A DNA stretch of 63,535 nt, the filler included, from Perkinsus chesapeaki ATCC PRA-425 (Eukaryota > Protista > Perkinsozoa), in the NCBI GenBank assembly GCA_013115145.1. It is 15 parts of 15 records of this genome, joined end to end, with 100 filler letters (N's around TTAATTAATTAA, not from the genome) between each part and the next. Parts side by side here need not be neighbours in the genome. Positions count along the whole stretch, not along the records: positions 1 to 24,318 come from JAAPAO010000546.1; positions 24,419 to 27,456 come from JAAPAO010001474.1; positions 27,557 to 28,956 come from JAAPAO010001982.1; positions 29,057 to 31,575 come from JAAPAO010001588.1; positions 31,676 to 33,332 come from JAAPAO010001841.1; positions 33,433 to 34,723 come from JAAPAO010002053.1; positions 34,824 to 39,235 come from JAAPAO010001266.1; positions 39,336 to 42,276 come from JAAPAO010001490.1; 7 more parts are not named here. One strand, 5' to 3'. The translations under genes were made by a program, and so were the position numbers. A model generated the notes under the pieces. That model searched no databases. It had not been told where the DNA came from and saw nothing but the letters and a program-made list of their open reading frames with translations. Below, piece after piece: positions 18,146-58,747 of this stretch (positions are counted from its first letter, which is position 1; the number at the start of each line of letters is the position of its first letter).

Positions 18146-18167
18146 ATTAGAAGTTCTAAGTTAGAAC
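18146..18167. other. Near-perfect 22-bp excision-footprint motif (target CTTAGAAC)
   Basis: aTTAGAA GTTCTAAG TTAGAAC; one mismatch at t1. Confidence 0.6.
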
Positions 18168-19166
18168 CTTGTGCTTGTGACGACAGAGACTAGGTTCGGC
18201 GGCTATTCCCGTTTGAGACCGTGGCCGGAATACGAAGTAGTCGGTCACCGAGCAGGCCATACTCTACCGTCGTACCCACCAAATTCGACATCAGTGACAT
18301 AGAGAGGAAGGCTCTTAATGGTGATGATATACGCTCTGATATAGCTTGTATCGTTGTAACATGGGCAATGGTGAGGAGCCCATATAACAGATATGAATGA
18401 CAGATTAGAACTACAGTACAGTCTAATTCAACTTCACCAAAGTGTCACAAGCGACCGACTCCTGACGAACGAAACTTGCCATTTGGCAAGGGACCGACCA
18501 CTACAAGTTCACTGTTATTATCGTTACCCTTTCTACACTCATTGACTGAACGTGTTATCTGTCGAACCGATCACAAGGATGATTCTTGCAAATATCCCTG
18601 GGATATTACCCAGGCTCTGGGTTCGAGGAATGTGAAGTGAAAAGGAAGAATGTATTGGAATGAATCTACCTCCAGGAGGTAACTTCCTTACTTTCGAAGG
18701 CGATGAGGAAACTAACCGCGTGGCGAAAGTTTTACTAGTCAGTGGTCAGGTCGAAACACAAGGCGGCGGAAGACTCTGGTTCCATTTATTCAGTTCGAAA
18801 GTTGCTCAATAACGCAATACTTCTTACTGCTTTGCTTCAATAGCTCGGTTCCGAGTGGTTCCACGAAAGTTGTGTTACACTCAGTAAAAGACAACACGAG
18901 AGAATGTTCCCGGAGGAGTTATTCCTCTCCCTATTTCTAAGTCATTCTCCGGGCTCATCTGTCTCCCCACAACTATGTGCTGAGATTCCTATTATCCAGC
19001 TGGTGGAATCGATCTATGACTCATCAGTAGTATAAGTTCTCCAAGCTTTTTACGTTATCGAATCCATTACCTACGAGCCACTTCTATCTTTAGAAGGAGA
19101 CGAGTCTTAAGTTATATTGTGATAATCCGCTATATCAATTTACTATCAAAATTCATCCGATTCGAT

Positions 19167-21790
19167 ACCAGGCTGAGGCTCCTAGCATAATCTATAGGTA
19201 TCGACTCTCTAGATGACACAGATCACCGGATGAAAGCTTTTCATCCAGTGATTTGTCATTTTATTGAAAAGTCAAATCCACACCGTTCAACATGTGGGGT
19301 TAATGGTTCCGGTTCAGAGAAGACTAGAATCACGTACAATCCTAACGGTAAGGTAATAGTTTGAGATCCAAATGATACACGAAGAGTTTTGCACGCAGTA
19401 ACGAACTATTAGGTTGTAATTAGTAAAGGAATACAACAACTTTATATACCAGATACGGCATCTGCCTTTTAGCACGATATGACCTAAACCAGCACCAAGC
19501 GTCTCCGAAACACAGTGAATCCTCCGCATTGGCCCTGGTTGGAGAATGTACACGCCAGCCCATCAGGTGCCGGGGTTTTGAGTTACCGGCTGCGTGCATT
19601 CATCGCTTCATAGATGATAAATATATTTCTTCCTTGATTATACTATTCCACTAACTCAACTCTACGCTACCTTCTCGACAGAAGAAACATTCAAGTTTGT
19701 TGAGGGAAGACTCACGCGGCAGTTCACTGTGATCAAACCAGACAGACCATCCACCCAAGGATGTTATCTTTCGTAGTTTCATCCACACGTTAGCTCTATG
19801 GGCAATAATCACGTATACTATACGCCACGATATGACATGGAACTGGATTTCCACACCAACCCCAATCGGGTCTTGTGGTGCAAGCCTTCGAATCTACCGC
19901 CAGTGCTTGAGTATATTCAGCAATGCAATCATGTCTAGTCTGAGGTTAGGTGAGGCAGAGAAGGCCGCAGACGGCCTACCCCAGAAAGACGAAAACTTAC
20001 AGAAACGAATATCACGCGAAAGGTTAGTGATAGTGGATGGCAGTGGATGACTGGATGGGGTCGTCTATCAAAAGATTATCATAGATGCTCGACGCATGCC
20101 GAATTATGCCGTGATTTTTGAAGCAGATAATGGGTCGAACTTCGACACAATTATCTTGGACCCTTCGACCGTCGATCTACTTATGCATTTTAGCTTGGAG
20201 ACGCGAACGGAGTATTTGAACACGTATTCATGGTGGGATTTGCAGCCTTTGCAGCGTAGATGCTTCTCAGGTGATAATATCGCGGCAAACTCAGTAGTAG
20301 GGCACTAGTAGCACTCCGAACCAAGTTTTGTGAACAAATGGTTCCCACCTTCAACGCGTTCATCATATGCCTTATCGGGAGTTATGGGCTGGAGGAGAGA
20401 GTATCTGGGCAGGCGAGCGGGTACGATGCTGCTCGCATGATAGAATGGCCGAAACTGTTTCAGGAAAAGTACAGCACAAGTGGGAATGCATGGCCGCGTG
20501 GCCAACATTAAAGAAAGCAGGTTGTTTGTCGCTCCTCAAGTTCATGTGCTACGCAGGTTCCTTTTCCAAGCCCGACGGGATTTGCAGGAAGAAGTCATTA
20601 TTTGGCGGCCCTACCAACTGCACTTGCCCTGCTGGGGAAATACTCTATTGTACGAGGCCTGAGGTATGCTCAATTTGATACGCAATGACTAGTACATAAC
20701 GCGGTTATTTTCAGTTGCTCCGTTATATTTATCCGCGCTGTGTCTGTGGAATACCATGTTCGGAAAAGACGACCTGTCCGCTCCCGTCCGGGGGAATCGG
20801 AAAGCCTTACTGTCACCGCCATAAGCTCTGTATGCTCGGTTGCGGAAAGGTATCAGGCTACTTTAGCTCCGTAGAGCGAGTGTCATCCAGGTTTCTTTCT
20901 GTCAGGGGTATGTATGTCCAGGAAATATGAAATGCTTCAGAGATTGGACTGCAGACTGCTTGTATGACAACAAATAGCATGGGATACTCTGCGATCGGGA
21001 TTCCCGATCAAGTCATTCTAATATGACACATCAGCTCCCTCTCGGAGACTGGCTCGTATGCGGTATGCCTCAAAGACATCCATCCACAGTGAATCGATAT
21101 CATAGTGAATCATTCACTATTACACGCACGCACTAGTTGTGCTTTTCCAATCGCTCATTCAAGCCTCGTGTTGTTCGTGAGCCCAACGGGGGATAAAAAT
21201 ATTACGTTCGATATCCACACCAAAGAATCGATAGTATCGAGTTTCGATATTGTTCCGAGTTATATCAGTAGGATTTGACATGCCGCATGTCACATGCGTA
21301 AAACCGAGGTGCGAGTGACCTGGTGCATCCCGACGCTGTTGTTGTGCGTTTGCACAGATTTACCCCACCGTCAACGGATGGCGGCTCCGCGACCTGCGTG
21401 AGCTTCAGCCTCCGCCGGCCTGTCAGTTCCTATGTTTCTCTATGGCCGCCTTAGCACGCCAACTCGCCGGTCCTGCCATCATGCGTGGGCCGACTCAACC
21501 CCCCTCCCCCCACTGACCGAGGCTTTGGTAGAGTGCGATCCGTTTCGAATCATCGTAGTAGGTCGCGCTGGACAAGCAGCAGAACGCGTCGGTCGTGTAG
21601 GCGCCTACGTTGCGCCTACATCGCGCCTCTGATGCAGCTTGTATCGCATTTGTAACATTGGTAATGTTGTGAAGGGCCAACACAACAGATAGAAATATCA
21701 GATTAGAATTACAGTACAGTCAAATTTAACCCCCCAAAGGTGTCACAGGCGACTGACTGAGCGGCGTCCCACCTGACGAGCAAGACTTAT
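19167..21790 (+). repeat. Segmental duplication unit B
   Basis: Colinear with 16340-18480, with extra insertions. Confidence 0.85.
20338..20977 (+). CDS. Cys-rich secreted-type protein, copy B (intron-2 GT donor lost; GC donor or pseudogene)
   Basis: Same 5-exon layout as copy A; AGCA|GTATG in A is AGCAGGTTG in B. Confidence 0.6.
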
Positions 21791-57169: not shown

Positions 57170-57207
57170 CTCCGGTCTGCACCGGGATTCGAACCTGCGT
57201 GACTGGC
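57170..57207 (-). pseudogene. tRNA-like 3' half (cut by gap)
   Basis: GCAGGTTCGAATCCCGG. Confidence 0.5.
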
Positions 57208-58716
57208 NNNNNNNNNNNNNNNNNNNNNNNNNNNNNNNNNNNNNNNNNNNNTTAATTAATTAANNNNNNNNNNNNNNNNNNNNNNNNNNNNNNNNNNNNN
57301 NNNNNNNTGGTTTCCGTTGTCGTAAAGCCGTGGAGCTTTTTATCGCAATGAAAACAATGATGACTAGAGGAGTGTTAGCGTACTTTGAATTGACCGCGCC
57401 AACACAAGCATTTTTCAAGGTCCGTCCCATCACACACCTCTGCCAGAGGCCCTCTGGGTTGCTCCTCTAGACTTGTTGCCAGGTTAAAGAACGAAGTTAA
57501 CGGGGCTGTGTTCCGCCTTGGCCAGACGAATACTTACAGACACACTGAATAGTTCCAGGGATTGAATATCACTAGTCAACTCGTAGACTCCGACGCACCT
57601 AAAACTATTATTCGTATACAGATCACGCGATGTGGACCACTCGTGCACTACTAGTGTTCCGTGACTTTATGACTCTATTAAAAGTGGATCGGAGGTCTCT
57701 TGAGGTTCCTATGACGCACATACAACCTTTCCCCTCGAGCTGCCTAAAAGATTGAACGATTCCTGGGAATAAAGTGCTACTCGACTACTTACGATGAGCC
57801 AGATGACAACCGTCATGAATAGGTATCTTGGCCGTTACCCGCTATGGAGCGCGAAGGAACGCGGATAACGGCTTCTACATTCTCTTGAAACGTGGAAACG
57901 ACCAACCAGTGCTCTAAGTGATTCTCGTAGGAACCAGATCGGATATGGCATTTACTGGACGACATCGTCCCTGAATTACTCAGGTTGAGCATCTTCAGCA
58001 GAACACGAGCAGTGGAGTACCTCACAAATCCCAAGCATCCTGGGAAAACCAAATTTAGCCCAAAACTGCATAAGGGTACATGCAGCCTTTACGCAGCCGG
58101 CTAGCTTGTATATCTGGGGAGGATGACTAGACATCGGACATCAAACGCAATCTAATGCTGGGGGTTGAGTCTTGACAAGTTGGAATTGTCAGCGTTGATT
58201 GTCGCTATGCGCACGCGTGTCATTGAAACGTTTGTGCAAAGTGCACGAAAACTCGAGAAAACTGGCCGCGACGGGATTTGATCCAGGGTGCCTTCTCAAT
58301 GTGCGAGTATATCATGTGTATCGGTTCCTCCTTGTCCCTGTATACTCTCAGGGGACAAAGACCACCCCTCACTANNNNNNNNNNNNNNNNNNNNNNNNNN
58401 NNNNNNNNNNNNNNNNNNTTAATTAATTAANNNNNNNNNNNNNNNNNNNNNNNNNNNNNNNNNNNNNNNNNNNNTATGCAGTGAATGATTCAGTTGTAAA
58501 AGTGACCAGAATCAGTTAATTCGAGTTTTTCCTTCATCATGGGCGCGCGCTATATGGGGTGCGCTATCAATACTGCGCTCGGCCAGAAATTCCTATGCCC
58601 CTTGTCAAGGTGCATAGGATTGTTAATCATACTTGCCGCAAGTTGGACGGATCACCCCAATATATCGAAAATACGCTACGTCATGAAACTTTGAAGGTAC
58701 CCTATGATGTTAGCAT

Positions 58717-58747
58717 TGGGTACGCCGTACCCAGGGTACGGTACCCT
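58717..58747. other. Overlapping 25-bp (9-mer TGGGTACGG) and 22-bp (8-mer CGTACCCT) footprint-type motifs
   Basis: Palindrome centres at 58725, 58733, 58740. Confidence 0.55.

Follow-up and report, generated by a model that had tools for sequence, protein, structure and literature searches.

The stretch of DNA analysed here (the window, 63,535 nucleotides) comes from Perkinsus chesapeaki ATCC PRA-425 and consists of 15 contigs joined by N linkers, with a G+C content of ~47%. A 22-bp motif was found repeatedly in it, in which an 8-mer T (t1 to t8) is written as T1-7, then as its full reverse complement rc(T), and then as T2-8, giving two palindromes with one-base centres. These 22-mers are real and far above chance. 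By itself the motif serves no function, and we propose that the 22-mers are probably the excision scars of a hAT-like transposon that duplicates 8 bp at its target, with the broken ends joined through the inverted duplication. We conclude with confidence that the motif works like a hAT footprint, and a hAT is the likely source of the scars.

An exhaustive scan of the 62,205 non-N bases returned 13 perfect 22-mers, 24 with at most one mismatch and 37 with at most two, and the scar density is ~1 per 1.5-1.7 kb. In 100 local dinucleotide shuffles the corresponding means were 0, 0.03 and 0.36 and the maxima 0, 1 and 3. The six perfect copies reported in a first-pass annotation of the window were all present, and seven more were added (13965, 14090, 21277, 37203, 44322, 52303 and 55347). 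The copies that it had described as near-perfect or degenerate carry one mismatch (18146 and 38448) or two (38176 and 38298), and the two signals that it had anticipated, enrichment over dinucleotide shuffles and a peak in register, were both observed. With one-base centres and word lengths from 5 to 12, the perfect counts were 2, 2, 0, 13, 1, 0, 0 and 0, against shuffle means of 1.8 and 0.13 for lengths 5 and 6 and at most 0.03 for longer words. Two perfect copies at length 6 compare with 0.13 expected, and 8 is the sole length that stands out. Seven alternative centre offsets at length 8 gave no perfect copy. Decayed 22-mers were also in excess when the AT-rich contig and poly-G had been masked (58,922 nt scanned), with 51 at up to three mismatches against 2.6 in shuffles and 97 at up to four against 21. 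The decay is graded, 13, 13 and 14 copies carrying 0, 1 and 2 events. As a control, 24 kb at five distant loci with a glyoxalase open reading frame (ORF), found by a metagenome scan and unusable as orthologues, contained no motif at one mismatch or fewer and one at two mismatches. A metagenome scan with the MULE ORF confirmed none of 83 candidate stretches.

Seventeen sites have a perfect t2-t7 core in each of the three copies; among them the centre linked to t8 is complemented in 17/17 and that linked to t1 in 13/17. By derivation, uncomplemented centres would be expected if hairpins had been opened to 5' overhangs and filled in, and this version was found 0 times at one mismatch or fewer. 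Palindromy ends at the borders of the 8-mer, extending to the left in 5/24 and to the right in 3/24 sites, which is about the chance level. Outside the 22-mers, palindromes with a one-base loop and arms of at least 7 nt numbered 19 against 3.4 expected, and those with no loop showed no excess (3 against 3.4). In maize, the classic footprint is T1-7,h',a',T2-8, a short form with just two complemented bases; no copy of it was found in the window, where 1.2 would occur by chance. Short footprints of T1-7, one base and T2-8 were counted 9 times against 5.0 and 8 times against 4.5, within the range of the shuffles (maxima 10 and 9). Three palindrome centres form a chain at 58717-58747 with spacings of 8 and 7 nt, an arrangement that calls for either two events or a palindrome of earlier origin. 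The word nTnnnnAn is the target consensus of Ac-type hATs. This combination of T2 and A7 was present at 8/24 sites (p ~1e-4) and at 10/36, but at 3/13 perfect ones (p 0.05), so that the preference suggested by the first-pass annotation persists as a modest bias. None of the 24 sites fits nnnTAnnn.

A separate class of scars with longer arms was found by searching for two one-base-loop centres with a common word, up to 200 nt apart and with arms of at least 4 nt. There were two perfect matches, both at a word length (k) of 8, with none at k=7 or k=9-11 and none in 10 shuffles. Their centres are 36 bp (24209/24245) and 54 bp (45339/45393) apart. Each insert copies both of its flanks in reverse complement, the left flank in its left part and the right flank in its right part, which fits two separately opened hairpins and not one template switch. 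A relaxed search gave 6 matches at k=8 against 0.08 expected and none at k=9-10. The long-arm scars and the palindromes are most simply explained by two ends that each bore the 8-mer and a hairpin cap.

DNA of the window was found in five public runs from two samples, one of them possibly its source. Contigs of the second sample (S2), which belongs to another study, were identical to the window over 37943-38823, six scars included. A diverged sister contig (38 differences in 269 nt) occurred in four runs of this second sample, which count as one observation. It tracks the window up to 38159, which is t7 of the scar at 38153, continues with t8 followed by the flank beyond the scar (24 of its next 30 letters agree with the window after this scar), and rejoins the window at 38323. 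For the span 38160-38322 it has 135 letters where the window has 163, a deficit of 2 x 14. The sister copy thus holds the 8-mer of 38153 once, and the window has exactly 14 bases more; this is the single-8-mer (empty) form that the first-pass annotation had proposed to look for. Judged by length, the perfect scar at 38209 probably accounts for the second 14 nt missing in the sister copy. The direction of the change at 38153 follows from the improbability of the triple repeat and not from the sister copy alone. Paralogues within the window differ in a similar manner, one copy having 29 additional bases at 21088-21116 and 32 at 20139-20170, both decayed long-arm scars, and 8 additional bases at a one-centre palindrome. 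At 21277, the other paralogue apparently has a different decayed scar. Sample S2 differs from the window over 36105-37896 by nine substitutions, and two of these are the two centres of the scar at 37296 (37303 and 37310, T>C; post hoc p ~0.002). Despite this case, centre bases were not significantly more decayed overall, and hypermutability of the centres was left unsupported (11 of 41 events against 7.5 expected, p 0.11).

These observations can be placed in a single scheme. Insertion of the element would duplicate T, of which the sister copy shows the single form. On excision, each flank would be closed into a hairpin, with the left tip between t7 and the complement of t8 and the right tip between the complement of t2 and t1; we infer tips one base into the flank because the centre bases are complemented. 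Host nucleases would then cut each hairpin 3' of its tip, independently and at a variable distance, as the long arms of 7-35 nt suggest. The 3' tails with rc(T) and T would anneal in one register and give T1-7, rc(T) and T2-8 after fill-in and trimming. One product is expected to dominate because any two openings that overlap inside T converge, by derivation, on the same 22-mer. As a refinement of the earlier model, the hairpins would need no full 8-nt opening, and joins outside the common register would produce the long-arm and one-sided scars. The proposal that hairpins were opened to 3' overhangs and annealed through the inverted 8-bp target site duplication reproduces the 7+8+7 geometry, and the long-arm scars add independent support to it. 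In agreement with a hAT footprint, the duplicated 8-bp site lies on both sides of the join, in the 22-mers and separately in the long-arm class, and the palindromes are centred on the complement of the element-adjacent base. The two ends were processed independently (arms 11/24 and 7/35 nt), and the 8-mer occurs once before insertion, clearly at 38153, by length at a second site and in two long-arm cases within the window. The visible record is partial, as precise or deleting excisions leave nothing to see. The readable map of past insertions envisaged by the first-pass annotation therefore holds in that sites can be counted, but not as a complete one.

The 14-bp gain shifts the reading frame, and selection would let scars survive in introns and intergenic DNA, where they were observed. 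None of the 37 scars lies within coding stretches supported by homology or Pfam, which make up 20% of the window (p ~2e-4), and two lie within a 156-aa ORF with no Pfam match; the earlier statement that no copy falls in an intact exon agrees with this. A MULE transposase gene at 34825-38079 (+) has three or more exons, one with the MULE domain, one near 36986-37198 and one with the SWIM domain, and its scars are confined to the gaps between them; a diverged sister copy of the gene is present in sample S2. The putative intron at 37199-37326, assigned from its GT-AG ends, frame continuity and flanking transposase-like motifs, joins two of these exons in frame and would measure 72 nt minus its four scars. 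The single database relative of the ORF at 34825-36468 is a Perkinsus marinus MULE-domain protein (54% identity over 88% of the query), and no longer relative of the SWIM exon was found among 944 candidates.

Further MULE-like sequences were observed in the window. At 29058-31454 (-) one ORF carries a MULE-like transposase region together with the C-terminal half of a PIF1 helicase (residues 15-171, matched in PDB with E 3e-7). This arrangement is also seen in the P. marinus protein P0001 (34% over residues 40-832), and the ORF is possibly a member of a helicase-carrying MULE family. An additional MULE-like ORF lies at 33433-34593 (-), with a Pfam MULE match (E 0.006) under the curated cut-off. 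Between two exons of the MULE gene, a short multi-copy element with inverted ends occupies 36652-36790. Many S2 contigs begin or end at 36652 and 36737, and no 8-bp duplication was seen by eye at the ends of this element.

Several observations weigh against hAT excision as the origin of the scars. No hAT domain was found among the 164 ORF references scanned (of 307 ORFs of at least 65 aa), and the transposases of the window are MULE-like. Credible terminal repeats with an 8-bp duplication were absent among the 15/30 scan candidates listed, from a scan with no shuffle control. A filled allele was seen neither in the 4.4 kb compared across four runs nor in the window, within the limit set by short contigs. 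Slippage deletion from a 22-mer would also yield the single 8-mer of the sister copy, the target bias is weak among the perfect copies (3/13), and the match at 59071, one of the six relaxed long-arm matches, is of low complexity. The scars also cluster, with 11/24 at 150 bp or less from another against 3.5 expected (p 0.004) and four in one 128-nt intron, and plain insertion and excision alone do not explain this clustering; overlapping chains are found at 37203/37222, 37277/37296 and 58717/58726.

The high density and clustering of scars speak for a rival reading, abortive landing, in which the transposase joins an element to its target across an 8-nt stagger and gap filling stops one base short. 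The complex, still bound, would then seal the target ends as hairpins and depart, and no lasting insertion would ever have existed. RAG is known for hairpin-forming resolution of transposition intermediates. The geometry derived for such landings is identical to that of excision, and at least 15 perfect scars contrast with no recognised filled element in the window. However, short contigs tend to break at repeats, so that filled copies would be under-counted, and such ends are a documented outcome of ordinary excision. Abortive landing has no direct support, and we consider it unlikely. Should the scars nevertheless be failed landings, for which we see a small chance, the transposase would be a mutator acting across the genome, adding 14 bp with each attack, revisiting scarred sites and lengthening introns and intergenic DNA with no transposon copies left behind. 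The same picture would be expected from any nuclease that cuts with a 5' stagger of 8 nt, if fill-in and hairpin closure came next. The element may instead be a MULE, such as the resident family, with the same chemistry and repair, a rather unlikely reading whose chances overlap with those of the hAT-like one. Transposase ORFs in the window, one perfect 9-mer version of the scar, and MULE duplications of 8-10 bp together with the flank hairpins of Muta1 (PMC5499845) speak for it. On the other hand, 13/14 perfect scars and every long-arm match at k 8-10 are 8-mers, Muta1 excision in yeast is >90% precise (PMC5499845), and scars lie inside the intron of the MULE gene and behind it, where the MULE is the target. 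Termini of the resident MULE were not found. Among other elements, Merlin is a further candidate, with its 8-9-bp duplication and P. marinus ORFs reported without identified termini, and the available text contains no statement on flank hairpins (PMC8101967). Dada was rejected as a source, since its duplication length of 6-7 bp is wrong and it targets tRNA genes (PMC3706591).

A mechanism with no transposon is short-range template switching, in which one excursion on the reverse strand from t7 to t8 runs back along the 8-mer and returns at t2 (order 3-4-1-2). The 22-mer and its empty site formally fit such a four-point switch, and switches with point 4 before point 1 have been accepted as viable (PMC7954356). 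Such orders were absent among 794 human-chimp events (PMC5453318), although the later paper blames a filter for this (PMC7954356). The fixed length of 8 and the one-base centres are unaccounted for by template switching, and the long-arm scars contain a pair of inverted segments with one rc(T) apiece, a structure that requires two broken ends, both carrying T. Template switching is largely refuted by this class, and we regard it as very improbable for the scars as a whole. A library or assembly artefact, in the form of fold-back chimeras, has a negligible chance. Assembly error is excluded because the contigs of the second sample match 37943-38823 letter for letter, and the graded decay and the avoidance of exons also disagree with an artefact. 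Excision of a hAT-like element and joining through the inverted duplication remains our preferred explanation.

The scars share most with those of Ac/Ds in maize, Arabidopsis, S. cerevisiae and C. albicans, namely P-nucleotide palindromes, flank hairpins opened by the host, microhomology, occasional long arms and an 8-bp duplication (PMC5873905, PMC1978519). Ac/Ds footprints contain palindromes centred on the complement of the element-adjacent base; in Arabidopsis and yeast 85-100% show microhomology, and arms in yeast are up to 20 nt long (PMC5873905). They are varied, with short insertions and deletions, and were read from excision assays, whereas in the natural genome of Perkinsus the most frequent two-sided class is the complete inverted duplication (+14 bp), arms are as long as 35 nt and, unlike in maize, the short two-base form is absent. 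Duplications of hATs are mainly 8 bp and those of MULEs 8-10 bp (PMC5499845). Muta1, a MULE of Aedes aegypti, resembles the Perkinsus system in its flank hairpins and 8-9-bp duplication (PMC5499845). The analogy to Muta1 drawn by the first-pass annotation is weak: the flank hairpin is in print, but the available text gives no one-base offset of the first nick, and >90% of excisions in yeast are precise (PMC5499845). Flank hairpins are named there for V(D)J coding joints, Hermes and Transib as well (PMC5499845). Opening of such hairpins leaves P nucleotides. V(D)J coding ends share no duplicated site and thus, unlike Perkinsus, have no single annealing register. The Hermes hairpin has a one-base offset, and the Transib duplication is 5 bp. 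Template-switch mutations also give a short inverted copy of adjacent sequence, and direct repeats when point 4 precedes point 1, but are of variable length, with one inverted segment per event and no fixed 8-bp register (PMC5453318, PMC7954356).

The hairpin chemistry is already known from Ac/Ds, Tam3, Hermes and RAG (PMC5873905, PMC1978519, PMC5499845). What differs here is the uniform 22-bp product and its density. No account of a fixed 22-bp product or of such Perkinsus scars was found in the literature covered, which leaves aside older Tam3, Ac, Hermes and Ascot-1 papers and supplements; among the papers listed, we found none on end joining in this alveolate parasite and no title on Perkinsus hATs. 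A single genome usually shows no trace of the excision of DNA transposons; the commonest visible scar here identifies itself, with 14 bases fixed by 8, so that past insertion sites, target words and relative ages can be counted from one assembly. About 75 sites lie above background in 59 kb at up to four mismatches, so that one can directly measure how DNA transposons turn over and how much they add to non-coding DNA. The long arms and the near lack of the short two-base footprint both suggest that in this parasite hairpins are opened at a distance from the tip and the ends joined through annealing.

Table 1. Positions of scars and related features in the window (mm, mismatch).
Feature	Position	Strand	Remark
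Perfect 22-bp scar, 8-mer CTTTCCAT	13965..13986		
Perfect 22-bp scar, 8-mer ACAGTAGG	14090..14111		
22-bp scar, 1 mm, 8-mer CTTAGAAC	18146..18167		
22-bp scar, 1 mm	18667..18688		
Degenerate long-arm two-centre scar, centres 20140/20170	20133..20177		32 nt missing in in-window paralogue at 17024
One-centre palindrome, centre 21001, arms 8	20993..21009		8 nt missing in in-window paralogue; read as one-sided scar
Degenerate long-arm two-centre scar, centres 21088/21111	21081..21118		29 nt missing in in-window paralogue at 17917, whose sequence matches inverted arm
Perfect 22-bp scar, 8-mer GACATGCG	21277..21298		
Perfect long-arm scar, 8-mer CGCTAGTG, centres 24209/24245, arms 11/24 nt, each copying its own flank	24202..24252		
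Putative GT-AG intron, 128 nt, MULE transposase gene	37199..37326	+	Scars 37203 (perfect), 37222 (1 mm), 37277 (2 mm), 37296 (1 mm)
Perfect 22-bp scar, 8-mer CCGTGTTG	38153..38174		Single 8-mer in diverged sister copy
Degenerate copy, 2 mm	38176..38197		Common to sister copy, hence older or no scar
Perfect 22-bp scar, 8-mer AAACTATC	38209..38230		Likely second 14 nt missing in sister copy
Degenerate copy, 2 mm	38298..38319		
22-bp scar, 1 mm	38448..38469		
Perfect 22-bp scar, 8-mer GTATCGAT	38543..38564		
22-bp scar, 1 mm	39540..39561		
22-bp scar, 1 mm	43094..43115		
Perfect 22-bp scar, 8-mer CTGGCGGT	44322..44343		
Perfect long-arm scar, 8-mer CTTGGAAG, centres 45339/45393, arms 7/35 nt, ~11 nt arm-like filler	45332..45400		
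22-bp scar, 1 mm	46035..46056		
Perfect 22-bp scar, 8-mer ACAGGTTC	52303..52324		
22-bp scar, 1 mm	52389..52410		
Perfect 22-bp scar, 8-mer CACTGAAG	52640..52661		
Perfect 22-bp scar, 8-mer GATCTGTT	55347..55368		
Perfect 22-bp scar, 8-mer TTGACTAG	55729..55750		
22-bp scar, 1 mm	57436..57457		
Three-centre chain: perfect 9-mer version (58717-58741) overlapping perfect 8-mer scar CGTACCCT (58726-58747)	58717..58747		
22-bp scar, 1 mm	58957..58978		

Other features were observed along the window. Tandem ABC-transporter-like genes, labelled from reading their translations, occupy 1-10929 with 75% DNA identity between copies, and the first 13.8 kb contain no scar at two mismatches or fewer. Multi-copy pieces with high contig depth and several loose ends lie at 38797-38866 and 39116-39235, the second ending in a CAG run; by eye the minus strand of the first resembles a tRNA, although ARAGORN called no tRNA gene. 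The contig at 24419-27456 is AT-rich (~30% G+C) and carries runs of AAT and a 21-nt tandem array; it is unlike the other contigs and could be foreign or a special repeat region. An ORF for a retroviral-type aspartyl protease with weak Pfam matches, likely a piece of a retrotransposon, is found at 27559-28779 (+), and partly duplicated exons of papain-family proteases at 51107-51385 and 53825-54888.

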